Source: Syntrophomonadaceae bacterium
GTDB taxonomy: Bacteria > Bacillota > Dethiobacteria > DTU022 > PWGO01
NCBI GenBank assembly: GCA_003554525.1
Contig: PWGO01000004.1
Span: 1 to 55,336 of the forward strand
Direction of reading: 5' to 3'
DNA: 55,336 nucleotides
In this document: piece after piece, positions 19,491 through 45,050 of the stretch
Layout: every line of letters begins with the position of its first letter
Position numbering within the stretch: the first letter of the stretch is position 1
The notes under the pieces: model-generated
Databases searched by the model: none
The model's input: only the letters and a program-made list of their open reading frames with translations
Told to the model about the DNA's origin: nothing
Position numbers and translations under genes: made by a program

Positions 19491-19495
19491 GCCAG

Positions 19496-21915: not shown

Positions 21916-22121
21916 GCGGCAGTTAGTTTTTAAAGTATTTAGCAGTGCTCCCAGCAAAACTTTAAAAAATAATCACTCAATTAAGTTAAAGCCCTGTCCC
22001 GGCAGATTTAATATAAGTTTAATGTATTTCTAAACCGGCGGGTGTAACTAACACCTCAGTAAAGTTTATAAACTTTCAGTATATAAAGTGCAGTTTAATG
22101 TATAAGGAGGAGAGAAAAAAA

Positions 22122-23039: not shown

Positions 23040-23044
23040 GTAAA

Positions 23045-23668: not shown

Positions 23669-23747
23669 AAACTCGAGAAAAACCGCTCACCTCCTTCAAG
23701 GCGGTGGCAAGCGTGCATAAAGCCAACCAAACATTTTTGAGGAGTTA

Positions 23748-23785
23748 TGAGGGGAAGGATTGAGGGGAAGGATTGAGGGGAAGGA
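23748..23785. repeat. 13-bp tandem repeat TGAGGGGAAGGAT x~3, each unit containing a Shine-Dalgarno-like core
   Basis: Units at 23748-23760 and 23761-23773, plus a truncated unit at 23774-23785. They end 8 nt before ATG 23794. Confidence 0.9.
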
Positions 23786-23793
23786 AGGTTTAT

Positions 23794-26736: not shown

Positions 26737-26752
26737 TGGCACGGGAATTGCA
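26737..26752 (+). promoter_or_regulatory. sigma-54 -24/-12 promoter for the symporter / nitrilase-like / AOR-2 operon
   Basis: TGGCAC-GGGAA-TTGCA, an exact consensus match. It lies about 160 nt upstream of the small ORF at 26911. Confidence 0.8.
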
Positions 26753-28545: not shown

Positions 28546-28738
28546 AACATAGATAAGAAAAGCTAAATCAGGTGGTGTGCTCCCTTTTAAAGTTGTTGTT
28601 ATTTAAGGAGGTGAGTTAAAACGGCATGAGGGGAAGTTGCTCGAGCCGGCAGATATAACCAATACTTGAAAACGGAATTTGGTTGAAGTTTGGAATATAA
28701 GAAACTATATTATTTTAATAAACCGGGAGGTATTAAAT

Positions 28739-29833: not shown

Positions 29834-29880
29834 GAGGTAGACGGCTATCACAAATATACTGCAGTTAAAGGAGGTTAACC

Positions 29881-31761
29881 ATGTTTGGTGGATACGCCGG
29901 AAAAATCCTGCGGGTAAACTTGACTACCCGGAAAATTACTCGGGAGGATATACCCGAAAATGTAATCAGGGATTATGTAGGGGGAGTAGGTCTGGGAACT
30001 TATTACCTTACTAAAGAAATAGATCCCACAGTGGATGCGCTTGGCTCGCAAAACAAGATGATATTTGCCAGCGGGCCCCTCTGCGGTATTGGCCTACCTG
30101 CTGCTTCAAGGTGGTCAGTGGTTACCAAGTCTCCCCTGGGTATATGGGGAGAGGGGTTGGGAGGCGGTTTCTGGGGCCCCGAGTTAAAGTTCAGCGGATA
30201 TGACGCGGTTATAATGGAAGGAAAAGCATCAAGCCCGGTGTACCTGTATATAAACAACGGCTTTCCCGAGCTCAGGAGTGCGGAACACCTCTGGGGCCTG
30301 GATACGTACCAGACAGTTAATGTTGTAAGGAACGAACTGATGGAACGCTGGGTGCGGATTGCCTGTATAGGACCTGCCGGGGAAAGCCAGTGCCACCTGG
30401 CTGGAATTATCAGCGATCCTGATGCCGGTGCCTGGCGGGGAGGCCTGGGGGCGGTAATGGGTTCCAAGAATTTAAAAGCTATTGCGGTGCGCGGAGAAGG
30501 GGAAATCAGTGTGGCCCACCCGGACACCCTGGAGGAGATAGTACACGATCTTTTATTTGAACATTTCGGCAAAAACTCCCTGATAACTGATTTCAGTGAA
30601 GTAGGGGGCATGCAGGTGCTTACTTCTCTTAACCTGGAGGGAGTTTTGCCTTCCTTTAACTGGCGGGATGGTTATTTTGACACCACAGAGAATTTTGACG
30701 GCAAAAAGGTAAAGGAAACCATACTGTTGAGCAAGTACGGCTGCATGGATTGCCGGGTAAGGTGCAGGGGAAACGTCCGGGTTAAAGACGGTCCTTTTGC
30801 GGGCACTACGGGTTACAGGCCGCAAATTGACCCGGCTTGTGCATTTGGACCGCTAAGCGGCGTGGGAGAGCTGGGCGCGATTATCAAAAATACTATCGAG
30901 TGCAACCGGCTGGGTATGTGCGGCATCTCCGCTGGGGCAAGTATAGCTTTTGCCATGGAATGCTATGAAAAAGGGCTTATCAACAAGACGGATACGGGGG
31001 GAATAGACCTTTCGTGGGGGAATAGCCAGGGTATATACGAATTGCTGCAGCTAATGGCCAGGAAAGAAGGTTTTGGCAAGGTTCTTTCAGATGGCGTAAG
31101 GGAGGCGGCCAAAAGGATAGGTGGTAATTCCGAAGATTTCGCTGTTCACGTCAAGGGTCTGGAGCCGTACACCTACGATGCCAGGGGCCTTTGGGGGATG
31201 GGCCTAACTTTTGCCACCTCTAACCGCGGGGCCTGTGGCGTAAGGCAGGCCATGGTTAACCTGGACCTGGGTGAAAAATACAGTCTGGGAGGCGGCGGTA
31301 CGGGAGGTTACCATCCTGCGCTGGGAATTACCCCGGAGAAGTATTCCCAGTTTAAAATTGACAACAAGGGGCAAACCCTGGTGTTGCTGCAGAATATTAA
31401 ATCAATAATTGACTCCGCCATAGTCTGCAATCTGCCATGGCGGCGACTGACCGACCTTCCCGAGCTGCTTCCCAAGGTTATCTCTGCAGTTACCGGTTGC
31501 GACATGAGCATGAACCAGATGCTGGAAAACGGGGAGCGTATTTTTAACCTTCAGAAAATGTTCAACGTTAAAAACGGAGTAAAACGCAAAGACGACATGT
31601 TGCCCAGAAGATTCCTGGAGCATCCCTTGAGGAACGGGAAGTTGAAAGGTAAAGTTCTGGAGAACTTCGAGGAGATGCTTTCGGAATATTACACGGCGCG
31701 GGGGTGGGACGAAGATGGCATTCCCCAACGAGAAACACTGGACAGGCTGGGGATAAGGTAA
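29881..31761 (+). CDS. aldehyde:ferredoxin oxidoreductase family (tungstopterin) enzyme, copy 2
   Basis: 626 aa. GKILRVNLTTRKITRE...YVGGVGLG...GPLCG. CMDCRVRC is the CxxCxxxC motif. AAAGGAGG upstream. Confidence 0.9.
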   Translation: MFGGYAGKILRVNLTTRKITREDIPENVIRDYVGGVGLGTYYLTKEIDPTVDALGSQNKMIFASGPLCGIGLPAASRWSVVTKSPLGIWGEGLGGGFWGPELKFSGYDAVIMEGKASSPVYLYINNGFPELRSAEHLWGLDTYQTVNVVRNELMERWVRIACIGPAGESQCHLAGIISDPDAGAWRGGLGAVMGSKNLKAIAVRGEGEISVAHPDTLEEIVHDLLFEHFGKNSLITDFSEVGGMQVLTSLNLEGVLPSFNWRDGYFDTTENFDGKKVKETILLSKYGCMDCRVRCRGNVRVKDGPFAGTTGYRPQIDPACAFGPLSGVGELGAIIKNTIECNRLGMCGISAGASIAFAMECYEKGLINKTDTGGIDLSWGNSQGIYELLQLMARKEGFGKVLSDGVREAAKRIGGNSEDFAVHVKGLEPYTYDARGLWGMGLTFATSNRGACGVRQAMVNLDLGEKYSLGGGGTGGYHPALGITPEKYSQFKIDNKGQTLVLLQNIKSIIDSAIVCNLPWRRLTDLPELLPKVISAVTGCDMSMNQMLENGERIFNLQKMFNVKNGVKRKDDMLPRRFLEHPLRNGKLKGKVLENFEEMLSEYYTARGWDEDGIPQRETLDRLGIR

Positions 31762-31856: not shown

Positions 31857-32030
31857 ACTGCTGCTGTTTAAACGTGGCATTATTGGTGGATTACAATATA
31901 AAGCCAACCTGTGGGGTGTTGCAACAAAGTGTTTACACGCAATGTAGCATATTAACGGTGGGTATACCGATGTTTAATTGCGGTCACCGGGCCGGGGCTA
32001 TATCCGGTATTTATATATTTCACCTGAAAG

Positions 32031-32046
32031 TGGCACCGATTTTGCA
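32031..32046 (+). promoter_or_regulatory. sigma-54 -24/-12 promoter for the 10-gene hydrolase ... PrpF operon
   Basis: TGGCAC-CGATT-TTGCA, an exact consensus match, 88 nt upstream of ATG 32134. Confidence 0.8.
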
Positions 32047-32133
32047 TGGTTAGTATTATAAACCTTATGTTTGCTTAAACGGTGGAGTAATAGTAATCCT
32101 GGTCGATTAAAGTAAACAGGGGTGATTAGCGTT

Positions 32134-32754
32134 ATGCGTGGAGATGGAACAAGAGAAAACGCCGGTTTTAAAGGCAGGCACGGTTTTGGGAAAAGTCCCG
32201 CGGTTCTGGTAGTGGACCTGATAAAAGGAGAAACAAACCCGGAGTACCCCTTGGGCTCGGATTTATCTTCCGTGCTGCTCAATACCAGGCGGTTGGTAGA
32301 GGAGGCCAGAAAAAAAAATGCCCCAGTAATATACGTTAAGCACGGCTATGAGCCAAACCTGTGTGATGTGGGAGTATGGAGCAACAAGGTTAAATCCGTA
32401 GAAACCTTGCGGTTGGGGACCAAACTGGTGGAACTTGATGAGATGCTGGAGGTAAAAGAAGAAGACGTGATTATAATAAAAAAACAGGCTTCTGCTTTTT
32501 TCAATACTCCGTTGCAGGCGGTTTTTACCTCAAGAAAAATAGATACGGTAATTGTATGCGGCTGCTCTACCAGCGGATGTATCCGGGCTACTGCCACGGA
32601 TGCCTGTATGAGCGGCTACTTGACCGTTATACCGGAAGAGTGCGTAGGGGATCGCTCCCTGGAAGCGCACAATTACAACTTGAGAGACCTTGATTATATT
32701 TTCGCAGATGTGGTTCCTTTAAAAGAAGTTATTTCTTACTTTTCCGCCATGTAA
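32134..32754 (+). CDS. isochorismatase-family cysteine hydrolase, copy 2
   Basis: Start at ATG 32134, with AGGGGTGA 8 nt upstream. VLVVDLI, IKKQASAF and TSGCIRAT give the D-K-C triad context. Confidence 0.85.
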   Translation: MRGDGTRENAGFKGRHGFGKSPAVLVVDLIKGETNPEYPLGSDLSSVLLNTRRLVEEARKKNAPVIYVKHGYEPNLCDVGVWSNKVKSVETLRLGTKLVELDEMLEVKEEDVIIIKKQASAFFNTPLQAVFTSRKIDTVIVCGCSTSGCIRATATDACMSGYLTVIPEECVGDRSLEAHNYNLRDLDYIFADVVPLKEVISYFSAM

Positions 32755-32828
32755 CTGCAAATTAGATAAATAAATAAAATGATAGAAATTTTGTTTTTTG
32801 GTTTTTAAGGTGGTAATTACAAGGAGGT

Positions 32829-34202
32829 GTGGTTTTGGATTATACTTTTAAAATTGCCGAACACGTATTCTCCACGAACATAGAGCACCTGCCTTCAGAA
32901 GTGCGGAATAAAGCAAAAGAAGTGCTGCTGGACTACCTGGGTGTCACCCTGTACGGCGGGCAAAAACCGTGGTCGAAAATGGTTTTGGATTACGTCAGGG
33001 AAAGGAAGGGGACCCCGCAGAGCACGGTAATTGGAACAGCTTTAAAAGCAGACTGTGCTTCTGCTGCGCTGGCTAACGGAAGCATGGCCCACGGGTTCGA
33101 AATTGACGATACTCATGATCCTTCAGTTTCACACCCAGGGGCGGTAGTAATATCTGCGGCCCTGGCTTTGGGAGAAAAAGAAAACGCAGTAGGGAAAGAA
33201 GTGCTGACGGCTATAGTCCACGGGTATGAGGTAATGGCGCGGGTTGGCATGGCAGTGGGCAGCTCCTTGATAGAGCGAGGTTTTCATCCTACTTCTTCAT
33301 TGGGCCCCTTTGGAGCTGCCGCTGCGGCCGGAAAAGTGTTGGGGCTGGACAGAGAGAAGCAGCAAAACTGCCTGAGCCTGGCCGGTTCTTTTTCCTCGGG
33401 GTTGATGGAGTTTTCGCAGGATTCCGCGGGCAACATGGTCAAAAGGCTGCACGCGGGTAAAGCTGCGGAAAACGGTATAGAAGCGGCATGCCTGGCGCAG
33501 AGGGGATTTACTGGCCCCCGAAAGGTACTAGAGGGAAAATACGGCTTTTGCCGGGTTTTTTCCGAAACACCGGAAATGGAAAAATTAACTAAGGACTTGG
33601 GTGAAGATTATCAAATCATGCACTTGAGCGTAAAGCCCTATGCTTGCTGCCGCCTGTTTCACTCGCTTATTGATGCGGTTTTGGAAATAAAGCGAAAGGA
33701 GGGGGTAAGCGCGGAGTTAGGAGAAATAGAAAAAATAACCGTATACGGGCCTTCCATAATGATTACCCAGCATCTGGTTTACCGGCCCGCCTCCATCATG
33801 GCTGCTCAGTACAGCCTGCCATATGTTGCGGCGGTTGCAGTTTGCAGGGATCCCGGAGACCCGAACTTGTTTTCGGAAGAAAATCTTTATAACCGGGAGC
33901 TGCTGGAAATGGCCTCCCGGGTGGATGCGGAAATCGATATGAATTTGGACCGGCAATTTCCCAAAAAATTTGGTTCGGCGGTGCAGGTTGAGTTCAAGGA
34001 CGGCAGGAAGTGCTACCAGGAAATGCTGGATTCCCGGGGGACTCCTTCTCGCCCCTTGAGCGGGGAAGAGATGGAAGCAAAATTTTTGGCCTTAACTGAT
34101 CGTATTTTATCAACGGCTGCACAAAAGAAAGTTATTGAAAAAGTAAATGGCCTGGAAGAGCTTGAAGATATTACTGCGCTGGTAGAGGAAACATTGGCTT
34201 AA
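32829..34202 (+). CDS. MmgE/PrpD-family protein, copy 3
   Basis: Family-typical block MAHGFEIDDTHDPSVSHPGAVV. The start is ambiguous: GTG 32829 is only 1 nt from AAGGAGG, so TTG 32835 (7 nt spacing) is more likely. Confidence 0.85.
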   Translation: MVLDYTFKIAEHVFSTNIEHLPSEVRNKAKEVLLDYLGVTLYGGQKPWSKMVLDYVRERKGTPQSTVIGTALKADCASAALANGSMAHGFEIDDTHDPSVSHPGAVVISAALALGEKENAVGKEVLTAIVHGYEVMARVGMAVGSSLIERGFHPTSSLGPFGAAAAAGKVLGLDREKQQNCLSLAGSFSSGLMEFSQDSAGNMVKRLHAGKAAENGIEAACLAQRGFTGPRKVLEGKYGFCRVFSETPEMEKLTKDLGEDYQIMHLSVKPYACCRLFHSLIDAVLEIKRKEGVSAELGEIEKITVYGPSIMITQHLVYRPASIMAAQYSLPYVAAVAVCRDPGDPNLFSEENLYNRELLEMASRVDAEIDMNLDRQFPKKFGSAVQVEFKDGRKCYQEMLDSRGTPSRPLSGEEMEAKFLALTDRILSTAAQKKVIEKVNGLEELEDITALVEETLA

Positions 34203-34231
34203 AGTAAACGTTAAAAAGGAGTGAATGGAAA

Positions 34232-35503
34232 TTGGGTGAAACCTTTGCACAAAAGATCCTGGCTCAAAAATCGGGGCGGAAAAGGGTGGAAAACGATCAG
34301 TTTTTACGTTGTAAGGTGGACGGGGTGCTGGCAAATGACGCCACCGCCAAGCTCATGATTGAGAGTTTTAACAAGATGAACCGCGAAGTTGCCGACATGC
34401 CGGAAGGATGCACTATTTATTTTGATCACTTTGCCCCGGCACCCAACCAGGATGCGGCAGCCAACCACAACCTGGTAAGGGATTTTTGTCGCAAACACAA
34501 AATCAAGCTTTACGATGTGGGAAGGGGCAGTCACCTGCACGTACCGGTAGAAATAGGACAGTGCAGGCCAGGAATGCTTTTTGTGGGCGCAGATTCTCAC
34601 ACTACTGTTTTGGGAGGTGTGGGGGCTTTTGCCACCGGCGTTGGTTCCACTGAGCTGGCTTCGGTTCTGGCCACTGGAGAGCTCTGGTTTCGCGTGCCCC
34701 GGGTTGTAAAAGTTGAGCTAAAAGGCGAAATGCCGGAGTACGTAGTAGCAAAAGACATTATGCTTGAGGTGGTACGCCAGCTAACTATATCGGGCGGGAG
34801 GTATAAAGCGCTGGAGTTTACCGGTGAAGCAGTAAAAAATTTAAGCGTGGAATCGCGTCTGGCCATGGCCAGTATGGCGGTTGATATCGGCGCCAAGGTG
34901 GGATTCTTTGCTGCAGACCGCATAACGGAAGAATACATTCGTGAATATACGGACAGGCCCTTTAACATTGTAACAAGCGACCCGGGAGCAAATTACGAGC
35001 GTACTGTTACTGTTGATTTATCCAGCCTGGAGCCTCTGGTGGCCCTGCATCCCAGCATAGACAATGTACAGCCGGTTTCCGGACTAACCGAAACTATAGA
35101 AATAAATGAAGTATACCTGGGTTCCTGCACTAACGGGAGGCTGGAAGACCTGGAAACAGCGGCGGAAATGCTGCAGGGAAGAAGGATTTGCCCCGGGGTA
35201 AGGCTGATAGTAGCACCACAGAGTAAAATTATTTACGAAAAAGCGCTGGCGGAAGGCATTATTCAAAAATTGTCCGAGGCCGGGGCGGTAATTTTGCCCA
35301 GCGGCTGCGGCCCGTGCTCCGGGACTCACCTGGGAGTTATGGCTCCGGGAGAAAAAGTTTTATCCACTGGCAGTCGCAACTCCCCCGGAAGAATGGGAAG
35401 CGGGCAGTCGCAGATATTTGTTGCCTCCCCGGTTACAGCTGCGGCAGCGGCACTGGAAGGAAGGATAGTTGATCCCAAACAAACAGGATGGGGGGGGAAA
35501 TAA
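34232..35503 (+). CDS. aconitase-family hydratase large subunit (LeuC / homoaconitase / dimethylmaleate-hydratase type)
   Basis: 423 aa, TTG start with AAAGGAGTGA upstream. VGADSHTT, GSCTNGR and PSGCGPCSG are the Fe-S ligand and substrate motifs of this family. Confidence 0.85.
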   Translation: MGETFAQKILAQKSGRKRVENDQFLRCKVDGVLANDATAKLMIESFNKMNREVADMPEGCTIYFDHFAPAPNQDAAANHNLVRDFCRKHKIKLYDVGRGSHLHVPVEIGQCRPGMLFVGADSHTTVLGGVGAFATGVGSTELASVLATGELWFRVPRVVKVELKGEMPEYVVAKDIMLEVVRQLTISGGRYKALEFTGEAVKNLSVESRLAMASMAVDIGAKVGFFAADRITEEYIREYTDRPFNIVTSDPGANYERTVTVDLSSLEPLVALHPSIDNVQPVSGLTETIEINEVYLGSCTNGRLEDLETAAEMLQGRRICPGVRLIVAPQSKIIYEKALAEGIIQKLSEAGAVILPSGCGPCSGTHLGVMAPGEKVLSTGSRNSPGRMGSGQSQIFVASPVTAAAAALEGRIVDPKQTGWGGK

Positions 35504-35504
35504 G

Positions 35505-36011
35505 ATGCTGGAAACGTATAAAGGGAAAGTAGTAAAACTGGGTGATAACGTGGATACCAACGACATAATTGCCACCAGATTTTTAATTTATACTGATCCC
35601 CAAAAACTCAAAGATTACCTGTTTTACGAAATAGACCCGGGTTTCACTGAACGTATTGAACCCGGGAGCATCCTTGTGGCCGGACACAATTTCGGGTGCG
35701 GCAGTTCACGGGAGCATGCGGCTATAGTAATTAAGGCAGCGGGTTTCAGGGCTGTAGTAGCAGAAAGTTTTGCCCGTATATTTTTCCGAAATTCTATTGC
35801 CATAGGGCTGCCCCTTATAGAGTGCCCGGGCATTGCCACGGAATGCAAGCAGGGTGATGAACTGGAAGTGGATATCAGGAACTCGGTGGTAAAAGTAAAG
35901 GACAGGGAGATGGAGGGCCTTAAGTACCCGGAATTTATTCTGGATATACTCGAATACGAGGGGCTTTCCAACTGGATAGCGGAAAACAGGGACCAGGTAT
36001 TAAAGCCATAA
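35505..36011 (+). CDS. aconitase-family hydratase small subunit (LeuD type)
   Basis: ATG 35505 sits immediately after the large-subunit stop (ATAAGATG). GHNFGCGSSREHA is the LeuD signature. Confidence 0.85.
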   Translation: MLETYKGKVVKLGDNVDTNDIIATRFLIYTDPQKLKDYLFYEIDPGFTERIEPGSILVAGHNFGCGSSREHAAIVIKAAGFRAVVAESFARIFFRNSIAIGLPLIECPGIATECKQGDELEVDIRNSVVKVKDREMEGLKYPEFILDILEYEGLSNWIAENRDQVLKP

Positions 36012-36029
36012 AAAGCTCAGACGGGAAAT

Positions 36030-36893
36030 TTGATGGAGGTGAAAAAAGTGACGGAACAGAGTAGCGGCAGAAAAGGATGGTGGGATAGCTCCATTTTTAA
36101 GGCAGAACCGAACAAGCTGTTGTACAGGGGTTACCGTATAGAGGATTTGTTAGGCCGCGTTTCATACGGTGAAATGGTTTATTTGATGGTCAAGGGTGAA
36201 CTGCCCCGCAAAAACGCAGGAAGGCTTATGGATGCTCTCCTGGTAGCGGCATGCGACCATGGGGCGGTATCACCTGCGGTAACCGCCTCCATGATGGCTG
36301 CCACCTGCGGGGTTACTTTTAACTCAGTAATAGCTACGGGTATGAACCTCCTGGGAAGAATACACGGGGGTGCAGTGGAAGAAGCCATGCGGGTTTACCT
36401 GGAGGCTGGAAGAGAAGTGGAAGATGGCCGGGAAGAGCTGGAAGTGTGCCGGGAAATTGCCCGGCGCTATAAAGAAAACAAACATTTTGTTCCCGGCTAC
36501 GGGCATCCCGTACACGACGATGATCCCCGGGTAAAAAAGCTTTTGGAAATGGGCTCGGAGGTGGTTCAGCTTGGGGAAATAAGCGGCAGGTATATATCTA
36601 TTTCACGGACCATGGGTGAATGTATAAACGAAAATTCCCGCCGACATATACCTTTAAACGTGGATGCGGCTATTGCAGCACTGTTGTGTGAGCTGGAACT
36701 GCCCCCGGAAACGGCCATGGGGTATATCTGTCTGTCGCGTGGAATTGGCCTGATGGCGCATGGCTACGAGGAATACCGGAAAGGAACCAGGATGAAAGCA
36801 CCCTGCCCTCCGGACATCTTGAAGGAAGAGATGACGTATTCTGGCCCGTCGGAAAGAGACCTCCCGGAGGAGCGCGAAAAAAATAAGGAGTAA
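36030..36893 (+). CDS. short citrate-synthase-family protein (citryl-CoA-lyase-like)
   Basis: About 281-287 aa, far shorter than a full citrate synthase. LLYRGYRIEDL, GRIHGGAVEE, VPGYGHPVH and PLNVDAAIA are the citrate-synthase catalytic His/His/Asp contexts. The start is ambiguous (TTG 36030, ATG 36033, or GTG 36048 with GGAGGTG 6 nt upstream). Confidence 0.75.
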   Translation: MMEVKKVTEQSSGRKGWWDSSIFKAEPNKLLYRGYRIEDLLGRVSYGEMVYLMVKGELPRKNAGRLMDALLVAACDHGAVSPAVTASMMAATCGVTFNSVIATGMNLLGRIHGGAVEEAMRVYLEAGREVEDGREELEVCREIARRYKENKHFVPGYGHPVHDDDPRVKKLLEMGSEVVQLGEISGRYISISRTMGECINENSRRHIPLNVDAAIAALLCELELPPETAMGYICLSRGIGLMAHGYEEYRKGTRMKAPCPPDILKEEMTYSGPSERDLPEEREKNKE

Positions 36894-37014
36894 GGTAGAA
36901 GTGAAATGGGGACCAGCTGGTAGTAAAGGAAGCCTTAATAATCCGGGAAGTGAAGTTAGTTGCGCATGCGGTACTTTTAAAGGGTAAACATCCAGGAAGG
37001 AGGAGGTTGAATAC

Positions 37015-38286
37015 ATGGCAAGGCTGCTGGAATACCAGGGGAAGGAACTGCTAAAGAAGTCGAAAATAAAAGTGCCCCGTGGGGAAGTAGTTGAAAGCAT
37101 GGAGAGGGCCGTGGCTGCTGCTTTAGAGATAGGTTTCCCGGTTATGGTAAAAGCCCAGGTGTTTCGCGGGGGAAGGGGAAAAGCCGGGGGCATTCATAAA
37201 GCGGAAGATATGACTTCCCTGGATAAGATTTGCAGGACGTTGCTGGGGAACGAGGTGGGCGGGTTAAAGGTAGAGAAGTTGCTGGTGGAAGAAAAGCTGG
37301 ACATAAAAAAAGAGGTTTACCTGGCGATAACGGGAGACCCTCAGACCCGCAAACCGGTGTTAATTTTCAGCGAAACCGGGGGAGTAGATATTGAAGAAGT
37401 TGCCCGTAATAACCCGGAAAAGGTAGTGTCGCAAACCATTGATATTTTAGAAGGACTTTACGATTACCAGGCCCGGAATGCTATTCGGAAGTGTCCCGGT
37501 CTGGACGGCAGAGAAATGGTCAAGTGTGCCGAAGCTGCTACCGGGCTATTTCTTGTTTACCGCGGTTACGATTGCAAACTGGTGGAAATCAACCCGATGG
37601 TTATCACTACCGGGGGTGAACTGCTGGCGGCTGATGCCCGTGTAGACGTGGATGATGATGCCGTATGGCGACACCCGGAGCTGGGCCTTACCGCGGCGGA
37701 AGAGGCGGGAGACCGGCCTTCCACGCTTCTGGAAATGGAGGCCGGCTGTATTGACGAGGGCGATCACCGCGGCTCGGCTCATTTTGTCCAAATAGACCCG
37801 GACGGGGCTTATGCCGAAGAAACCGGTAAAATATCCATAGGGTTTAACACGGTGGGTACCGGCTGCGGCCTGACCTTGCTGGACGAAATAGTTCCGCTGG
37901 GTTACTACCCGGTGAACTTTTGTGATACCTCCGGCAACCCTACCTCCTTGAAAATGTACGCTGCCACCAGGATTATTTTTTCTCAGCCTGGTATAAACGG
38001 CTATATATTTGTCACGGGAGTTGCGGCACAGCTGCTGGATAATACTGCCAGGGGTATAATAAAAGCGCTCCTGGAGTTATACCCGGGAACAGGAGGGCAG
38101 CCAAACATACCCTGTGTTTTTGTTTTTCGGGGACGTTCCGATGAGGTGGCTCTGCAGCTTTTCGAGGAGCACGGAATAAGCAAAAGCCCCATGGTTAAAA
38201 TGATGGGGCGGTGGGCCACGGAAAAAGATGCGGCACGTGCTTTTGACGAATTATACCGGAAGTTTCAACCGGTGGGAAAGGAGTAG
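37015..38286 (+). CDS. ATP-grasp beta-like subunit of an ADP-forming acyl-CoA synthetase (SucC / citryl-CoA-synthetase large-subunit-like), unit 2
   Basis: 423 aa. MARLLEYQGKELLKKSKIKVPRG...KAQVFRGGRGKAGGI. GAAGGAGGAGG upstream. Confidence 0.8.
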   Translation: MARLLEYQGKELLKKSKIKVPRGEVVESMERAVAAALEIGFPVMVKAQVFRGGRGKAGGIHKAEDMTSLDKICRTLLGNEVGGLKVEKLLVEEKLDIKKEVYLAITGDPQTRKPVLIFSETGGVDIEEVARNNPEKVVSQTIDILEGLYDYQARNAIRKCPGLDGREMVKCAEAATGLFLVYRGYDCKLVEINPMVITTGGELLAADARVDVDDDAVWRHPELGLTAAEEAGDRPSTLLEMEAGCIDEGDHRGSAHFVQIDPDGAYAEETGKISIGFNTVGTGCGLTLLDEIVPLGYYPVNFCDTSGNPTSLKMYAATRIIFSQPGINGYIFVTGVAAQLLDNTARGIIKALLELYPGTGGQPNIPCVFVFRGRSDEVALQLFEEHGISKSPMVKMMGRWATEKDAARAFDELYRKFQPVGKE

Positions 38287-38293
38287 GTGGATA

Positions 38294-38626
38294 ATGCCGG
38301 AAATAATGAAGTTTAGAACCATGGGGGAAGCAACGGTAACCGTGGAACTGGATAAGTGCGGGGCATGTCGCAGCAAGGCCTGCGTAGAAGCATGTAGCAA
38401 ACCGCACATGGGTAATATCCTGGAACTGGACGGGGAAGGGAAACCCAGGCTGTTAATGGAGAAAAACAAGGTAAAACGTGGCGGATGTACGGACTGCCTG
38501 GCCTGTGAGCTTGACTGCAGGCTTTACGGTAAAGGGGCGCTAAAAATTAGCCTGGAAATGCCCTACCTGGAAGAACACCTGCGGCAATTAACCGAACGCG
38601 GGGAGAAAATAGTTTACCGGGATTAA
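38294..38626 (+). CDS. small ferredoxin-like protein between the beta-like and alpha-like subunits, unit 2
   Basis: 110 aa from ATG 38294. The track's earlier start overlaps the upstream gene. CGACRSKACVEAC and CTDCLACELDC make 8 Cys, with the second motif canonical CxxCxxCxxxC. It is a homolog of 19496..19822. Confidence 0.65.
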   Translation: MPEIMKFRTMGEATVTVELDKCGACRSKACVEACSKPHMGNILELDGEGKPRLLMEKNKVKRGGCTDCLACELDCRLYGKGALKISLEMPYLEEHLRQLTERGEKIVYRD

Positions 38627-38692
38627 TAACGGCAAATAAGGGAATTTGTCAATTTCCCTTGATCATTAACAAGAAGAGCCAAGGAGGCCTGA

Positions 38693-39595
38693 ATGATGAG
38701 TATTCTATTGGATCAAAATACGGGATGTATGGTCCAGGGGATAACGGGAAGGGAAGCGCGAATACGCGCTGCTACCATGAAAGAATACGGAACCAGGCTT
38801 GTCTGTGGGATTACTCCCGGACGCGGAGGTGAAGTGGTGGAGGGAGATATCCCGGTTTACGATACCGTAGAAGAAGCGAAGGAAAACCACCCTGAGGTAG
38901 CGGCATCCGCGCTAATGGTGCCCGCCGCACTGGTGAAAAATGCCGCTTTTGAAGCCATTGATGCCGGTATAAAAGTTATTCTTTTAATTCCCGAAAGAGT
39001 TCCCCAGCAGGATATGCTGGAGATTATCGAGAGAAGCAGGAAAAAAGGTAGTTTTGTGGTTGGCCCCAACTCTATCGGGCTGATCAGCCCCGGGAAAGCC
39101 CTGCTGGGTATGATAGGGGGCACCCCGGAGCTGGCGCGGGAGCTTTTTAAAGAAGGCGAGTGCGGAGTGATGTCGCGAAGCGGAGGGCATACTACCACTA
39201 CTTCTTACTACCTTACCAGGGAAGGTGTGGGACAGAGTACTTGTGTAGCAGTGGGAGGCGACGCTTTTGTGGGCTCTTCTTTCGACGAGCTACTGCCCCT
39301 TTTTGAAACAGACCCGCAGACAAGGGCGGTGGTGATTTTTGGCGAACCGGGCACTACTGCCGAGGAAGATGTGGCCCGGATGATGGAAGAGAAAAAGTTT
39401 ACCAAGCCGCTTATCGCTTACGTAGCGGGGAAATACGTGCGCCCGGGTATGCGCTTTGGACATGCGGGAGCCATAATAAACAAGGGTGAAGGCAGGGTGG
39501 AAGATAAATTGCACAGGTTGAGAAAAGCAGGAGTTCACGTGGTGGATCACCTGGGGGATGTGGGAAAGGTAGCCCGTGAGCTTAACCTGAAATAA
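38693..39595 (+). CDS. CoA-binding alpha-like subunit (SucD / citryl-CoA-synthetase small-subunit-like), unit 2
   Basis: 300 aa. CMVQGITGREA, SRSGGHTTT and RFGHAGAII (phosphohistidine loop). AAGGAGG upstream. Confidence 0.85.
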   Translation: MMSILLDQNTGCMVQGITGREARIRAATMKEYGTRLVCGITPGRGGEVVEGDIPVYDTVEEAKENHPEVAASALMVPAALVKNAAFEAIDAGIKVILLIPERVPQQDMLEIIERSRKKGSFVVGPNSIGLISPGKALLGMIGGTPELARELFKEGECGVMSRSGGHTTTTSYYLTREGVGQSTCVAVGGDAFVGSSFDELLPLFETDPQTRAVVIFGEPGTTAEEDVARMMEEKKFTKPLIAYVAGKYVRPGMRFGHAGAIINKGEGRVEDKLHRLRKAGVHVVDHLGDVGKVARELNLK

Positions 39596-39608
39596 GGTGG
39601 GTAGACCT

Positions 39609-40760
39609 ATGTGGAGCCGCGAACAGGATCTTTTAAAATGTGTAATCATGCGGGGTGGGACCAGTAAAGCGGTGTTTTTTAAATCCAACGAGCTTCCCGG
39701 GAATCTGGCAGAGCGGGAAAGACTGATTTTAAAGGTTTTTGGTAGCCCTGATTTAAGGCAGATAGATGGACTGGGTGGAGCCGACGTTACTACCAGCAAG
39801 GTGGCTATTATCGGGCCTTCTACCAGGAAAGATGCAGATGTGGATTATACTTTTGGACAGGTTGGCTTGAACCAACCCCGGGTGGACTGGAATGTGAACT
39901 GCGGCAATATTTCTGCGGCAGTGGGCCCTTTTGCTGTAGACGAAGGGATGGTTCCTCCTGCAGAGGGGGAAACCAGGGTGCGTATATTTAATACCAATAC
40001 GCAGAAGATTATTACCGCCTTTGTTCCCGTGATTTCCGGGAAAGCAGCGGTAAAAGGTGAATACGCTATAGACGGTGTGCCGGGGCGGGGGGGGCGGATT
40101 AACCTGGACTACTCGCAGACAGTGGGGGCCGCCACGGGCAAGCTCCTGCCCACGGGAAACGCCGTAGATTATATCGAGCACAGCGGAAAGAAAGTGCCGG
40201 TTTCAGTGGTGGATGTAGCCAATCCTTCCCTGTTTATTGCTGCCGAAGAGGTAGGGCTTACCGGTAAAGAAGCCAGGCCGGCGCTGTCTTCTTGCACGGA
40301 GGTACTGCAGCATCTGGAAGAAATCCGTTGCATAGCCGCGGTAAAATGCGGTTTTGTAAAGAACCCGGGGGAGGCAACGGAGAAAAGCCCGGTCCGGCCC
40401 AAGGTTATCCTGGTAGCGGCTCCGGTTGATTATGAGGATTACGCAAGCGGTGAAATCATTGCCGGGGATAAAGTGGATTTCCTTTCCCGGGTGATCTGGA
40501 ACCAGGCCCCTGTGGAAACGCACACGGGAACAGGGGCGGTTTGTGCTGCTGCTGCGGCGCTGGTGCCAGGAACTGTTTTGAACATGGTAGCCTCCGAAAA
40601 AGCCAAAAACAGCGGCCTGGTGCGCATAGGACATCCCCGCGGCATCCTGGAACTGGAGTGCGAAACAAAGATGGAAGGCGGAAGTATTTCTTTCCAGCGG
40701 ATCTTTTTTGGAAGGACTGCCAGGAGAATTATGGAGGGATATGTATATATAACGGTTTAA
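39609..40760 (+). CDS. PrpF / 3-methylitaconate-isomerase / aconitate-isomerase family protein
   Basis: Start at ATG 39609, with AAGGTGG 8 nt upstream. LKCVIMRGGTSKAVFF is the family's N-terminal signature. About 383 aa. Confidence 0.85.
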   Translation: MWSREQDLLKCVIMRGGTSKAVFFKSNELPGNLAERERLILKVFGSPDLRQIDGLGGADVTTSKVAIIGPSTRKDADVDYTFGQVGLNQPRVDWNVNCGNISAAVGPFAVDEGMVPPAEGETRVRIFNTNTQKIITAFVPVISGKAAVKGEYAIDGVPGRGGRINLDYSQTVGAATGKLLPTGNAVDYIEHSGKKVPVSVVDVANPSLFIAAEEVGLTGKEARPALSSCTEVLQHLEEIRCIAAVKCGFVKNPGEATEKSPVRPKVILVAAPVDYEDYASGEIIAGDKVDFLSRVIWNQAPVETHTGTGAVCAAAAALVPGTVLNMVASEKAKNSGLVRIGHPRGILELECETKMEGGSISFQRIFFGRTARRIMEGYVYITV

Positions 40761-40787
40761 AATACAAACCAAACGGAGGAATGGCCT

Positions 40788-41651
40788 ATGATAGCCCAGT
40801 TTGTTTTGACCTCCAGCGAAGCCAAGAAATTTATATCCCTGGGGCTGGCCCGGCATCCCCTGGTACAGGAAGCTGTGGAAGATTCTATGGTAGTTATACA
40901 TCCCAGCAGCAGCACATATTTCCTGGTGGAGGCGCTTACCGGTTATGTACCCGGGACAAAGGTGTGGGTAGCGGGAGTTATTGTGCCGCGCGGGGCCTGC
41001 GTGGAAGCAAATACGCGGCCCACGCGCCGGGAAGGTGAAGCCCTGACTACTTCCCTGAAAGACCCGGGAATGTTTCCATACTCCTGGGTAATAAAAAAGG
41101 GGAGCCTGTATACTGGTATAAAACTCGATGATATCCTGAAAGAGATGGACGAAAAATCGGTCTATGTAAAAGGTGTTAATGCCGTAGATACAGCCAAAAA
41201 TGCAGGGGTGCTTCGTGCCAGCATGGCCGAAGGTACCATCGGCAAGGTTTTAAAGGTGTCGGAAAAAAATAAATTTAAAATTATTTGCCCTGTGGGAACG
41301 GAAAAACTGGTATGGGGAAGCTTGGCGGAAAAAGACGGTTTTAGCTCAAAAAAGAAAGACTACGCTATGGGTTGCAGCGTCAATCTGTTTACGTTAAAGC
41401 CGTTGGTAATAAACGAAACGGAAGCCGCATCTCTTCTGGGTGAAGTCAACGCAGAAGTTATAGCTTCAGGTGGACTGGCCGGAGCGGAAGGAGGGGTAAC
41501 GCTCCTGGTAGAAGGAGAAAAAGAAGAAGTAAGAAAAGTTATCCAGGCCGCAGAACTTAGCAAGGGAGCCCGCCTGCCGGAGGTGCTGTTGGCCCCGTGC
41601 AGTGACTGTGGAGTGCCCACCTGCGAGTTTAAGGGTTGGGAAGAAGTATAA
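40788..41651 (+). CDS. conserved hypothetical protein with a C-terminal Cys cluster (paralog of 2511..3422)
   Basis: 287 aa. See 2511..3422 for the shared blocks. The tail is APCSDCGVPTCEF. It is the last gene of the operon. Confidence 0.7.
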   Translation: MIAQFVLTSSEAKKFISLGLARHPLVQEAVEDSMVVIHPSSSTYFLVEALTGYVPGTKVWVAGVIVPRGACVEANTRPTRREGEALTTSLKDPGMFPYSWVIKKGSLYTGIKLDDILKEMDEKSVYVKGVNAVDTAKNAGVLRASMAEGTIGKVLKVSEKNKFKIICPVGTEKLVWGSLAEKDGFSSKKKDYAMGCSVNLFTLKPLVINETEAASLLGEVNAEVIASGGLAGAEGGVTLLVEGEKEEVRKVIQAAELSKGARLPEVLLAPCSDCGVPTCEFKGWEEV

Positions 41652-41973: not shown

Positions 41974-43377
41974 ATGAAATTAGAACAAAACTTGGATATA
42001 AAACAAGCCCAGAAATTAGTAATGACTCCCGAGTTGAAACAGGCTATTGCTCTTTTACAGATGCCTGCTGTACAGTTGCTGGAATTTTTACAAGAAGAAA
42101 TGATTAACAACCCGGTCCTGGAGTGGGAAGAAGATAAGGAAAATAGCGGGGAATACGATGAAAAAGTAGAAACCGGGGAAGAAGAGTTTCCCTGGGAATA
42201 TTACTTTTCGGAAAATAACTATGAAGAAAATACCGGCGTGGCTTCTGACGGATATTCTACCAGCCATGTGCTGGAGAATACTTATAGTAATGAAGAATCC
42301 CTGCTGGATGAACTCTGCAGCCAGGTAAGGATGTTGTTTGCAAGAAAAGACCATTCTCTGGGTGAATACCTGATAGGCTGTCTGGACGCGGATGGATACC
42401 TCAGGCTGGAATTGCAGGAAATAGCTTATGCTTTAAAAGTACCGAAAAGAAGGATCAAAGAAGTTTTAAAATTAATCCAGGATTACCTGGAACCGCCGGG
42501 TATAGGTGCGCGAAGTTTAAAAGAGTGTCTGTTGATACAGATGAGAAGAAACATGGATTACCCGGAACTGGTCGAAGAACTGTTAAACAACTATCTTCCT
42601 GCGGTAGCTGACGGGCGATACAGTTACCTGTCTGGACAGTTAGATGTGAGTCTCGAAAAAATATTTGAAGCGGTTGATTATATCAAAACCCTGAATCCCA
42701 GGCCGGGAAATCTGTGGGGCTCTTTACTGGATGTGCGGTTTATAAACCCCGATGTAATTGTAGAAAAAGTAGAAGGGGAATACGTGATCCATATTCCGGA
42801 AAACAGTTCACCTTACATTAAAATAAATCCTTACTACCGCAGCCTGCTCCATGATAACAAAAGCGAAGGCTCTGTTTATATTAAAAAATGCCTGGACCGG
42901 GCCATGTGGTTGTTGAAAAGCATAGAGCAGCGCCGTATTACTCTATACCGGGTTTCGGAAATTATTGTAAATGAACAACAAGGGTTTTTAGAGCACGGCT
43001 TAAAATATTTATCGCCACTTACCTTGAAGAAAGTTGCCGCTTCGCTGGAAATGCATGAATCCACGGTAAGTCGTGCAACTTCTAACAAGTATATGCAGAC
43101 ACCGTTGGGTCTGTTTCCCTTTAAATTTTTTTTTACCAGCAGCCTGCAGGGAGAAGACGGCCAGAATTATTCTTCTACCAGCATAAAATCTTATATCAAG
43201 GAGCTAATTTCGCAGGAAAGCCCGGAAAAACCTTACAGCGACAGCAAGCTTGCTGGACTATTAAACCAGGAAGGAATTGAAATCTCCCGACGAACTGTGG
43301 CCAAGTACAGGGAAGAACTCTATATTCCATCTTCGCAGAAAAGGAAACAAAAAAGCAGGAAAGAAGTAACGATATAA
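41974..43377 (+). CDS. rpoN: RNA polymerase sigma-54 factor
   Basis: 467 aa. Region I is LKQAQKLVMTPELKQAIALLQM, followed by an acidic linker. The C-terminal RpoN box is ISRRTVAKYREEL. Confidence 0.9.
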   Translation: MKLEQNLDIKQAQKLVMTPELKQAIALLQMPAVQLLEFLQEEMINNPVLEWEEDKENSGEYDEKVETGEEEFPWEYYFSENNYEENTGVASDGYSTSHVLENTYSNEESLLDELCSQVRMLFARKDHSLGEYLIGCLDADGYLRLELQEIAYALKVPKRRIKEVLKLIQDYLEPPGIGARSLKECLLIQMRRNMDYPELVEELLNNYLPAVADGRYSYLSGQLDVSLEKIFEAVDYIKTLNPRPGNLWGSLLDVRFINPDVIVEKVEGEYVIHIPENSSPYIKINPYYRSLLHDNKSEGSVYIKKCLDRAMWLLKSIEQRRITLYRVSEIIVNEQQGFLEHGLKYLSPLTLKKVAASLEMHESTVSRATSNKYMQTPLGLFPFKFFFTSSLQGEDGQNYSSTSIKSYIKELISQESPEKPYSDSKLAGLLNQEGIEISRRTVAKYREELYIPSSQKRKQKSRKEVTI

Positions 43378-43595
43378 CGTAGGTAGAAAGCTCACTGTAA
43401 AAAAATGCGGTGGAATTTGTCAATACCGGTGGGAAGCTTGTAACCAGGAAAGCCCGGGAGTCCTGCTTAGCTAAATGGTAACTACTAAGAGTGTGAATCT
43501 TAGAGGATAAGAAGCCCTACTACACCATGAGACTGAGTAGATGCGTCAAATTTTTAATCGTATTGTTGTATCATTTGCCTTGGGAGGGGTTAAAT

Positions 43596-45050
43596 ATGTT
43601 AACAGCCGATGAATATATTAAATCTTTGCGGAAGCTAAATCTAAAAGTTTACCTGTTTGGAGAACTGGTAGATAACGTGGTGGATCACCCGGTAATAAAG
43701 CCCTCTATTAACTCCGTGGCCAGGACCTACGAGCTGGCTGCGGATCCGGATTACCGTGAAGTAATGACCGCCCAGTCCAGTTTAAACAGACAGGTAATTA
43801 ACCGTTTTACCCACCTGCATCAGAGCACGGAGGACTTGATTAAAAAAATAAAGATGCAGCGCATTTTGGGCCAGGAAACAGCTTCGTGTTTCCAGAGGTG
43901 TGTGGGCTTTGATGCTTTTAACGCGGTAGACAGCGTAACTTTTGAAATGGATAAAAAGCTGGACACGGATTACCACCATAGATTCCGCCGTTTTATACAA
44001 CAGGTACAGGAGAAAGACCTGGTAGTGGATGGGGCCATGACCGATCCCAAGGGGGACCGTTCTTTGCGCCCCTCGCAGCAAGCCGATCCAGATTTGTACC
44101 TTAGGCTGGTGGAAGAAAGGGAAGACGGAATAGTGGTCAAAGGGGCCAAAACCCACCAGACAGGAGCTCTTTGTTCGCACGAAATCCTGGCCATGCCTAC
44201 CGTGGCCATGGGGGAAGAAGATAGCAATTATGCGCTTTGCTTTGCCGTTCCTAGCGATAGCGATAACCTGGTTTACATATACGGGCGGCAGTCCAGTGAT
44301 ACCCGCAAACTTGAGGGAGGGAACATAGACGTGGGCAACTGCCGCTACGGGGGACACGAGGCGCTGGTAATATTCGATAACGTGTTTGTACCAAAAGAAA
44401 GGGTTTTTATGTGTGGGGAATATGAATTCAGCGGTTCCCTGGTAGAGCGTTTTGCAGGCTACCACCGGCAGAGCTACGGGGGCTGCAAGGTTGGCGTAGG
44501 AGATGTTTTGATCGGGGCGGCAGCACAGATAGCCGAGTACAATGGTGTTCAAAGGGCCTCCCATATCCGGGACAAGATTATAGAAATGGTGAACTTAAAC
44601 GAAACCATATATTCGTGCGGGATTGCCTGTTCCAGCCAGGGGGTACCTACAGCTTCCGGTACTTACCTTATTGATTTGTTGCTAGCAAATGTCTGCAAGC
44701 AGAACGTTACTCGCTATCCTTACGAAATAGCCAGGCTGGCGGAGGATATAGCGGGAGGATTAATGGTAACTCTGCCTTCGGAAAAAGATTTTAACCATCC
44801 CGAGGCGGGCAAGTACCTTAAAAAGTATTTAAAAGGGGTTGACGGAGTAAAGACGGAAAACCGGCTGCGCATGCTGCGGCTGCTGGAAAACATGACCCTG
44901 GGAACTGCGGCAGTGGGTTACCGTACGGAATCCATGCACGGTGCCGGTTCTCCCCAGGCCCAGCGCATCATGATATCGCGCCAGGCTGACCTGGAAAACA
45001 AGAAGAAAATGGCACGGGCTATAGCCGGGATAGAGGAAGAGAAACAGTAA
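43596..45050 (+). CDS. abfD: 4-hydroxybutyryl-CoA dehydratase / vinylacetyl-CoA isomerase-like protein
   Basis: Start at ATG 43596, with GGGAGGGG upstream. MLTADEYIKSLRKLNLKVYLFGE is AbfD-like. CFQRC and HRQSYGGC match the Cys-x3-Cys and His-x6-Cys cluster ligand spacing I recall for AbfD. The related HpaB family is not fully excluded. Confidence 0.75.
   Translation: MLTADEYIKSLRKLNLKVYLFGELVDNVVDHPVIKPSINSVARTYELAADPDYREVMTAQSSLNRQVINRFTHLHQSTEDLIKKIKMQRILGQETASCFQRCVGFDAFNAVDSVTFEMDKKLDTDYHHRFRRFIQQVQEKDLVVDGAMTDPKGDRSLRPSQQADPDLYLRLVEEREDGIVVKGAKTHQTGALCSHEILAMPTVAMGEEDSNYALCFAVPSDSDNLVYIYGRQSSDTRKLEGGNIDVGNCRYGGHEALVIFDNVFVPKERVFMCGEYEFSGSLVERFAGYHRQSYGGCKVGVGDVLIGAAAQIAEYNGVQRASHIRDKIIEMVNLNETIYSCGIACSSQGVPTASGTYLIDLLLANVCKQNVTRYPYEIARLAEDIAGGLMVTLPSEKDFNHPEAGKYLKKYLKGVDGVKTENRLRMLRLLENMTLGTAAVGYRTESMHGAGSPQAQRIMISRQADLENKKKMARAIAGIEEEKQ

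Follow-up and report, generated by a model that had tools for sequence, protein, structure and literature searches.

A candidate module for ATP-dependent cleavage of citramalate-type acids, with a ferredoxin-like ligase component, in a sigma-54-controlled operon of a Syntrophomonadaceae bacterium

Introduction

What does a gene set resembling citryl-CoA synthetase (CCS) and citryl-CoA lyase (CCL) do in a catabolic operon? The question is raised by contig PWGO01000004.1 of a Syntrophomonadaceae bacterium (assembly GCA_003554525.1), whose 55,336 nucleotides are called the window here and which turned up in a single public run, from a salt lake metagenome. Four genes at 36030–39595, all on the plus strand, encode a CCL-like, a SucC-like (beta), a ferredoxin-like (Fd-like) and a SucD-like (alpha) protein. 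A preliminary description of the sequence had placed the same four-gene module at these positions, and our analysis confirmed it.

We give a probability of about one half to the reading that this module carries out the ATP-dependent activation and cleavage of a citramalate-type tertiary 2-hydroxy-dicarboxylate, in anaerobic catabolism of the itaconate/citraconate type. In the first step, a three-component ADP-forming ligase (beta, iron-sulfur (Fe-S) subunit and phosphohistidine alpha) would convert the free hydroxy-acid, with ATP and CoA, into its CoA thioester. In the second step, the short citrate-synthase-fold lyase, with its His/His/Asp triad, would carry out a retro-Claisen cleavage of the thioester, releasing an acyl-CoA together with a 2-oxo acid. 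The likeliest substrate would be citramalate (2-methylmalate), giving acetyl-CoA and pyruvate; the next candidate would be 2,3-dimethylmalate, giving propionyl-CoA and pyruvate. According to a 2025 paper, no organism or pathway is yet known for anaerobic degradation of the itaconate type (PMC12290011).

The operon and its lyase

The module is part of an operon of ten tightly packed genes (32122–41651). These encode, in order, an isochorismatase-type hydrolase, an MmgE/PrpD-family protein, LeuC, LeuD, the CCL-like lyase, the beta subunit, the Fd-like protein, the alpha subunit, a PrpF-family isomerase and an uncharacterised protein of 287 amino acids (aa).

The lyase gene (36030–36893, + strand) encodes 287 aa from a TTG start; translation could alternatively begin at ATG 36033 or GTG 36048, and the gene as called in the database has 281 aa. 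The Pfam family Citrate_synt matched its C-terminal part only, at profile positions 164–350 of 357. The preliminary description had reported a citrate-synthase-family protein of ~285 aa with three active-site motifs, and we found these exactly as quoted: GRIHGG (36354–36371), GYGHPV (36495–36512) and NVDAA (36657–36671). The His, His and Asp of the triad were invariant across 23 homologues and aligned with the same residues of Hydrogenobacter thermophilus Ccl (6hxp). This was also the nearest solved structure, with 144 bits compared with 72 or less for citrate synthases, and the NCBI citryl-CoA lyase model NF004864 was matched at 302.7 bits (cut-off 261). By these scores and motifs the protein is placed in the short citrate-synthase-fold citryl-CoA lyase group, which counts over 500 species representatives. 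In a set of 185,579 such representatives, the protein nearest to the lyase was 54% identical to it, and exact-sequence look-ups from both starts returned no record. The only near relative was a 5.7 kb metagenome contig (L088) with 69–83% identity and the same gene order.

The expectation that all CCL homologues adjoin a ligase was rejected, as most do not. Homologues at 40–54% identity with no succinyl-CoA synthetase (SCS)-type ligase nearby were found at nine loci (L002, L004–L008, L011, L014 and L016). In metagenome-assembled genomes (MAGs) of Desulfobacterales/Thermodesulfobacteriota (L004–L008, L016), the lyase gene lies beside genes for a thiamine pyrophosphate (TPP)-dependent enzyme, an ACD-alpha-like CoA-binding protein, a DUF2889 protein and an alpha/beta hydrolase. 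In Bacillota (L002, L011, L014) it is likewise beside a TPP-dependent enzyme; in Geobacillus/Bacillaceae, aldehyde and alcohol dehydrogenases accompany the TPP enzyme, and a type I dehydroquinase and TctC are among the neighbours at two Bacillota loci. Since many homologues stand beside TPP enzymes and have no ligase, the lyase family is broader than a partner of CCS, which suggests further roles of this fold. The family name does not fix the substrate. Among the oxaloacetate-binding residues, the Arg of the DPR and SR motifs is conserved and the equivalent of citrate-synthase His238 is His or Gln; inspection of these residues did not separate oxaloacetate from pyruvate as the product.

The ligase and its ferredoxin-like component

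The beta subunit (37015–38286, + strand; 423 aa) is predicted to belong to an ADP-forming acid-CoA ligase and consists of an ATP-grasp domain and a CcsA-type acid-binding domain. The whole protein scored 184 bits with Thermus SCS, 157 with CcsA, 126 with Escherichia coli SucC and 80 with AclB. For its C-terminal acid-binding domain alone, the scores were 61 bits with CcsA, 29 with Thermus SCS and 17 with each of E. coli SCS and AclB. Landmarks of the subunit are RPSTLLEMEAGCIDEGDHRG at 37714–37773 and NFCDTSGNP at 37915–37941. A seven-residue insertion (RPxTxxExEAxxIDxxDHRG; ID..DHRG) and the motif D-x-x-G-N-P are common to beta and CcsA, whereas the three SCS references have a gap at the position of the insertion and GGG at that of the GNP motif. 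Unlike SucC, the beta subunit gave no Ligase_CoA match in Pfam. In a rough neighbour-joining tree, which held only four references, without AclB or MtkA, and is indicative only, the beta family and its paralogue in the window grouped with CcsA and outside the three SCSs; branching within the SCSs was what the preliminary description had named as counting against it.

The alpha subunit (38693–39595, + strand; 300 aa) has a CoA-binding domain and the phosphohistidine motif GHAGA at 39458–39472. It scored 277 bits with archaeal SCS alpha, 216 with E. coli SucD and 192 with CcsB, and looks like an ordinary SCS alpha of the archaeal type. Both subunits missed the NCBI thresholds for SucC and SucD (beta 241.8 vs 370 bits; alpha 282.8 vs 353). 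The label "CCS-like", which the preliminary description had given to the synthetase as a whole, thus appears justified for the acid-binding part of beta and not for alpha.

Between the two subunit genes lies the Fd-like gene (38294–38626, + strand). Its ATG start at 38294 is 8 bases past the SucC stop, preceded by the ribosome-binding site GGTGGA. The gene encodes 110 aa, fewer than the 132-aa open reading frame (ORF) listed for this position. The Cys pattern is CxxCxxxxCxxxC ... CxxCxxCxxxC; the window protein has 8 Cys, and 7–8 are conserved. We recovered 80 metagenomic loci with the beta subunit, which together with six found earlier gave 86 related loci. The Fd-like gene stood between beta and alpha in all 64 loci with at least 450 bp downstream, and the alpha gene followed the Fd-like gene in all 47 that extend 1.5 kb or more downstream. 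When the small protein was searched for exhaustively, 93 representative clusters were obtained. Of the cluster representatives, at least nine were fusions in which the ferredoxin-like domain is C-terminal to a SucC-like beta (471–541 aa), and in one further fusion a SucD-like CoA-binding domain comes after the ferredoxin-like one (nine beta-type and one alpha-type: P0354, P0358, P0382, P0399, P0414, P0415, P0421, P0422, P0428 and P0429). Pfam 4Fe-4S models gave sub-threshold matches only. The AlphaFold model of the protein had a pLDDT of 95.8, and its top fold matches were mostly 2x[4Fe-4S] ferredoxin-type domains, with weak E-values.

We infer that the Fd-like protein is an iron-sulfur subunit that binds the ligase, so that the three components would be physically associated. 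We know of no characterised SCS, CCS, ATP-citrate lyase (ACL) or malate thiokinase with a ferredoxin-like subunit, and literature searches also found none. The synthetase is no simple CcsAB orthologue of two subunits: alpha is not CcsB-like, and a third, ferredoxin-like component is always present.

Sister clusters and the exchange of lyases

A CCL-type lyase was found next to the beta-Fd-alpha trio in 14 of the 86 loci, and an enzyme of the 3-hydroxy-3-methylglutaryl-CoA (HMG-CoA) lyase subfamily in 25. The first group, type A (14 loci, in Thermodesulfobacteriota-like and other MAGs, plus the window), has the order CCL-beta-Fd-alpha-LeuC-LeuD, often with the 287-aa unknown and sometimes with PrpF-family and MmgE/PrpD genes. 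The second, type B (25 loci; Chloroflexota, Clostridia and others), has the order (MmgE/PrpD)-LeuC-LeuD-PrpF-family-beta-Fd-alpha, followed by the HMG-CoA-lyase-type enzyme, which scored 364–376 bits with the NCBI HMG-CoA lyase subfamily model (threshold 246).

A third lyase type is present in the window itself. A paralogous module (18225–21733, + strand) consists of SucC2 (18225–19490), Fd2 (19496–19822), SucD2 (19846–20769) and a CitE/HpcH-type acyl-CoA lyase (20804–21733), which gave a sub-threshold match to the RipC/Ccl model. One ligase family is thus combined with three non-homologous C-C lyase folds, and this is strong contextual support for a scheme in which a free hydroxy-acid is activated and its thioester then cleaved. 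The gene logic that the preliminary description had recognised, an SCS-superfamily acid-CoA ligase with a short citrate-synthase-fold lyase, thus holds true and is conserved in different phyla.

A variant order was seen in an Anaerolineales MAG (L009 8835–17390): a FAA-hydrolase-family protein, CCL, an Fd-like protein, a 432-aa synthase-like protein, alpha, beta, an MFS transporter and a CoA transferase. The 432-aa protein is isopropylmalate/citramalate/homocitrate-synthase-like, the beta is closer to SucC2 of the window, and the CoA transferase belongs to family III.

More tentatively, the beta-Fd-alpha trio may represent an unrecognised, anaerobe-wide ligase family with an obligatory Fe-S subunit, which together with interchangeable lyases and free-acid Fe-S hydratases would serve a CoA-transferase-independent anaerobic fermentation of C5 (or C6) dicarboxylates of the itaconate/citraconate/mesaconate type.

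Sigma-54 promoters and regulators

The window contains three mismatch-free copies of the sigma-54 consensus TGGCAC-N5-TTGC, where 0.12 were expected, and none of 100 shuffled windows reached three. Each of the three is intergenic and in the correct orientation. The first, TGGCACCGATTTTGC (32031–32045, + strand), is a −24/−12 box and the putative promoter of the ten-gene operon, and a terminator-like hairpin (31991–32008) lies just 5′ of it. The second −24/−12 box, TGGCACGGGAATTGC (26737–26751, + strand), is ahead of a unit of SSF transporter, nitrilase and aldehyde:ferredoxin oxidoreductase (AOR) genes (27049–31761), and the third (12487–12501, − strand) heads a TRAP-transporter operon. In the ~50-kb region there are five sigma-54-type promoter boxes in all. 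Consensus terminator and sigma-70 scans gave background level only.

A PrpR-type sigma-54 activator is encoded at 24590–26479 (+ strand), with PrpR_N, PAS, AAA+ sigma-54 interaction and HTH_8 domains in Pfam, and rpoN, the gene of sigma-54 itself, is directly downstream of the ten-gene operon (41974–43377, + strand). The earlier claim that the operon is sigma-54-driven is therefore supported by the three perfect boxes, the PrpR_N activator and the flanking rpoN. Sigma-54 promoters, a PrpR-type activator and transporters together indicate catabolism. The catabolic setting under a PrpR-type regulator was thus borne out, and the preference of the preliminary description for a citrate analogue over CO2 fixation was a reasonable reading.

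After rpoN, in the region 41974–45050, there is also an HpaB-family protein, which scores far under the HpaB cut-offs; this Pfam family also covers 4-hydroxybutyryl-CoA dehydratase.

Neighbouring enzymes and the likely substrate

The MmgE/PrpD-family protein (32829–34202, + strand) belongs, by Pfam, NCBIfam and structure-sequence scores, to the IRG1/iminodisuccinate epimerase branch and not to the 2-methylcitrate dehydratases. It scored 148 bits with the Bacillus IRG1 homologue 7bra, 128 with iminodisuccinate epimerase 2hp3 and 121 with cis-aconitate decarboxylase, compared with 28–33 bits for true PrpD structures; the NCBI PrpD models gave 44–62 bits against cut-offs of 458–950. One such protein, encoded in aerobic itaconate clusters, recently proved to be a methylsuccinate isomerase (PMC12290011). 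The PrpF-family isomerase (39597–40760, + strand; NCBIfam matches below cut-off) is nearest to the 3-methylitaconate delta-isomerase (Mii) of Eubacterium barkeri (3g7k), with 382 bits compared with 238 for the methylaconitate isomerase PrpF.

The LeuC-type Fe-S (de)hydratase large subunit (34232–35503, + strand) matched NCBIfam NF001614 at 501.7 bits (cut-off 385) and was below the LeuC equivalog cut-off. The LeuD/DmdB-type small subunit (35505–36011, + strand) matched TIGR02087, "LeuD/DmdB family", at 166.7 bits (cut-off 108.95), and scored 167 bits with the Methanocaldococcus isopropylmalate/citramalate isomerase compared with 111 with homoaconitase. Its recognition loop is RFLIYT (35577–35594). 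The isopropylmalate/citramalate isomerase has RYLVYT in this place, homoaconitase has PYLRTT, and the sister clusters have RYLMLT, RYLVLT and RYLSLT. Jeyakanthan and colleagues reportedly found in 2010 that the Arg of the homoaconitase loop binds the distal carboxylate. The substrate-recognition loop of the LeuD-type subunit sets specificity (PMC7308503).

The exchange of lyases bears on the substrate as well. Enzymes of the HMG-CoA lyase type act on 3-hydroxy-3-methyl acyl-CoAs, and those with the citrate synthase fold on 3-hydroxy-3-carboxy acyl-CoAs. The CitE type accepts malyl-, citramalyl- and HMG-CoA (PMC6689899). Since citramalyl-CoA has both a 3-methyl and a 3-carboxyl group and is a known substrate of the CitE family, it would fit all three lyases, and it or its 2-methyl homologue, dimethylmalyl-CoA, would be the simplest substrate to suit all of them. 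The four independent observations on PrpD, PrpF, LeuD and lyase exchange favour an alkyl-substituted malate over citrate, methylcitrate and homocitrate.

In the proposed pathway, the Mii-like isomerase would supply citraconate from itaconate, or dimethylmaleate from methylitaconate, and the LeuCD-type hydratase would convert the cis-alkene into the tertiary alcohol (citramalate or dimethylmalate). The IRG1-like MmgE/PrpD protein would be an epimerase or decarboxylase acting on a C4-dicarboxylate backbone. The isochorismatase-family (amidase-type) hydrolase, encoded by the gene at the head of the operon (32122–32754, + strand; Pfam match, with all NCBIfam matches below cut-off), would bring in a nitrogen-containing precursor.

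Several observations weigh against the citramalate reading. Type A and type B ligases form separate clades and differ in one loop of the active-site region (VTGxAAQ vs vSCvSSQ), so their substrates may differ in acid, enantiomer or stereochemistry. Elsewhere the trio is found, with no hydratase or known lyase nearby, beside HMG-CoA reductase (L119), beside a methylmalonyl-CoA-mutase-type enzyme and a 3-hydroxyacyl-CoA dehydrogenase (L134), and beside hydantoinase/oxoprolinase A and B (L156); the family as a whole thus goes beyond the two cluster types, and its ligases probably act on several acids. A Mii-like gene is present in only two of the 14 CCL-type clusters besides the window, and most have none. 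The LeuD loop argument assumes that LeuCD acts in the same pathway and that the Arg rule from methanogens is valid here. The NCBI citryl-CoA lyase name and the citrate-activating-like domain of beta lend some weight to citrate as a possible substrate. Finally, the nitrilase, the AOR, the isochorismatase-type hydrolase and the 287-aa protein have roles that the proposed reading does not explain.

Alternative readings

The strongest alternative, which we nevertheless consider unlikely, is a true citrate-cleaving CCS plus CCL in a catabolic role, leading from (trans-)aconitate or a precursor through cis-aconitate, citrate and citryl-CoA to acetyl-CoA and oxaloacetate. The lyase is above the NCBI citryl-CoA lyase equivalog cut-off and has Ccl as its closest structure, and the acid-binding domain of beta is closest to CcsA. 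The PrpF family includes aconitate isomerases, MmgE/PrpD enzymes act on aconitate and citrate-type acids, and one sister cluster has a tricarboxylate transporter, TctCBA. However, the LeuD loop has no Arg for a third carboxylate and matches that of the isopropylmalate/citramalate isomerase, and the isomerase is far nearer to methylitaconate than to methylaconitate isomerase. The commonest partner of the ligase family is an HMG-CoA-lyase-type enzyme, and we know of no member of the HMG-CoA lyase family that cleaves citryl-CoA. The usual route of anaerobic citrate fermentation is, moreover, by the ATP-independent citrate lyase. Proteins annotated as citryl-CoA lyases have also earlier proved to be citramalyl-CoA lyases (PMC6689899).

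The preliminary description had also allowed the module to run in reverse and conserve energy. An acyl-CoA and a 2-oxo acid would be condensed, the thioester would yield the free acid and ATP, and citraconate, itaconate or methylsuccinate would serve as an electron sink. Both reactions are reversible in principle, and the TfrAB-like enzyme of the window (below) and an enoate-reductase-like protein of a sister cluster could reduce the unsaturated products. But an effector-sensing PrpR-type activator, uptake transporters and hydrolases are typical of substrate-induced catabolism, and the lyases of the sister clusters (HMG-CoA lyase, CitE) are degradative. Our analysis found nothing that favours the reverse direction itself, and we regard it as improbable.

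It is quite improbable, too, that the substrate is a substituted tricarboxylate (2-methylcitrate or homocitrate) in a (reverse) methylcitrate-type pathway with PrpD, PrpF and LeuCD, as first proposed. Pfam does recognise members of the PrpD, PrpF and aconitase/LeuCD families, and there is a regulator of the PrpR_N type as well. For both PrpD and PrpF, however, the family was right and the orthology wrong: the former scores far under the PrpD models and structures and is IRG1/epimerase-like, and the latter is Mii-like. The LeuD loop lacks the homoaconitase Arg and is not of the tricarboxylate type, and homologues of PrpB and PrpC were not seen among the annotated ORFs from 466 to 50427.

A chance juxtaposition of an ordinary SCS and a degenerate citrate synthase can hardly be credited, since the best whole-length matches are indeed SCSs (Thermus for beta, archaeal for alpha) but both subunits are below the SCS cut-offs, beta has no Ligase_CoA match and a CcsA-like C-terminal domain, a ferredoxin-like gene is always between the subunit genes, and the order CCL-beta-Fd-alpha is repeated in 13 further loci from other phyla.

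Other genes of the window

The paralogous trio is flanked by genes for a TfrAB-like soluble enzyme of the fumarate reductase type and for a two-subunit hydratase of the class-I-fumarase/tartrate-dehydratase type. These belong to a second catabolic module (14837–24489), which stands behind a sigma-54 box with one mismatch (14671–14685) and also encodes a DUF1847 protein; its TfrB-like subunit carries CCG domains. This region reads as a route from methylsuccinate/mesaconate through (S)-citramalate and citramalyl-CoA to acetyl-CoA and pyruvate, and the paralogous module would thus take the mesaconate/(S)-citramalate branch.

A third sigma-54 unit (466–12501, − strand) encodes the TRAP transporter DctPQM together with an isochorismatase-type hydrolase and two paralogues of the MmgE/PrpD type. 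It also contains another sigma-54 activator, which has a PAS domain, the second AOR of the window and a 306-aa ORF that matched no family. The pairing of an isochorismatase hydrolase with MmgE/PrpD proteins therefore occurs twice in the window. Altogether the 50-kb region has four MmgE/PrpD paralogues, two amidase-type hydrolases, and TRAP, MFS and SSF transporters, and on the proposed pathway it would as a whole read as an island for branched C5-dicarboxylates.

The nitrilase-superfamily gene of the SSF transporter–nitrilase–AOR unit (28679–29833) is below the cut-off of the Nit6803 family. A copy with 63% identity is directly upstream of the CCL-type (type A) cluster on an unrelated metagenome contig (L103 596–1699). 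The hydrolases and the nitrilase are a hint that the growth substrate is a nitrogen-containing (nitrile- or amide-bearing) precursor.

The 287-aa protein encoded by the last gene of the operon (40788–41651, + strand) has no Pfam match. Among the trio loci it was found in 5 of 14 of type A and 0 of 25 of type B. Its family has more than 260 clusters, all annotated "hypothetical", with an invariant Cys71 and a C-terminal CxxCxxxxC (C271, C274 and C279 in the window protein). Its AlphaFold model (pLDDT 90.8) gave only weak fold matches, which were eIF2B/ribose-1,5-bisphosphate-isomerase-like (TM ~0.35, E ~3e-3). Homologues are also encoded at L001 15189–16052 and L084 10791–11654, and others of ~42% identity are found in unrelated contexts, where they neighbour a glycyl-radical enzyme with its activase (L086) or an amidohydrolase (L087).

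Discussion

The nearest known system is the split ATP-citrate lyase of H. thermophilus (CcsAB plus Ccl; 6hxq, 6hxp), in which an SCS-superfamily ligase and then a short citrate-synthase-fold lyase carry out the same two steps. Ccl is the closest solved relative of the window lyase and has the same triad, beta has the ID..DHRG insertion and the GNP motif of CcsA, and the phosphohistidine motif is in the window alpha. In contrast to CcsAB, a ferredoxin-like gene separates beta and alpha, and alpha is nearer to SCS alpha than to CcsB. The setting also differs, as the window genes are in a sigma-54 catabolic operon of an anaerobe and not in the reductive tricarboxylic acid (TCA) cycle, and their neighbours suggest alkyl-dicarboxylates rather than citrate. 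SucCD and MtkAB have the ATP-grasp domain, the CoA-binding domain and the phosphohistidine architecture in common with the window ligase, but its subunits are below the curated cut-offs, its acid-binding domain differs and it would have an extra Fe-S subunit. The ligase thus differs from CcsAB in its alpha and its number of components, and it does not belong to SucCD either.

The lower part of nicotinate fermentation in E. barkeri (Mii, DmdAB, Dml) likewise combines a Mii-like isomerase with an adjoining hydratase of the LeuD/DmdB family, an assignment made here by family model, with no DmdAB reference sequence compared directly. The same chemistry is implied, in which an alkene is shifted and then hydrated to give a tertiary alcohol. 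Neither a B12-dependent 2-methyleneglutarate mutase nor a Dml-type lyase of the isocitrate lyase family was found among the annotated ORFs of the window, where the C-C bond would instead be cleaved in a CoA thioester formed at the expense of ATP. With aerobic itaconate/methylsuccinate degradation (Ict, Ich, Ccl; PMC12290011) and the CitE-family (S)-citramalyl-CoA lyases (PMC6689899), the proposed pathway would have its last step in common, from citramalyl-CoA to acetyl-CoA and pyruvate. An MmgE/PrpD-family protein occurs in both settings, and the paralogous module of the window has a CitE-type lyase. In the window, however, an ATP-dependent ligase would activate the free hydroxy-acid, where the aerobic route uses a CoA transferase on itaconate; Fe-S hydratases would add water to the free acid and not to the CoA ester; and the lyase is of a different fold family.

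Literature searches found no description of this gene combination. The likely novelty lies in the Fe-S subunit, in lyases that are exchanged as modules and in the probable link to anaerobic catabolism of the itaconate family; the mechanism itself would be conventional chemistry.

The CCS/CCL split has been regarded as a relic of the path towards ATP-citrate lyase and citrate synthase. If the proposed reading is true, this division of labour would extend beyond CO2 fixation in Aquificae-type autotrophs and form a catabolic device of modular build, common among the anaerobic bacteria of sediments (Thermodesulfobacteriota, Chloroflexota, Bacillota), whose lyase is exchanged among three folds. The window and its sister clusters would then hold the first candidate genes for the anaerobic breakdown, and not mere reduction, of itaconate-family acids, which are relevant to immunometabolism, fungal ecology and bioplastics. 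An Fe-S subunit would be added to the ligase superfamily, raising the question of redox control as against structural clusters in enzymes of substrate-level phosphorylation. In practice, labels now given to these genes, such as "succinyl-CoA synthetase", "ATP-grasp domain protein", "citryl-CoA lyase", "PrpD" and "PrpF", likely mislead metabolic reconstructions, including automated calls of the reductive TCA cycle.

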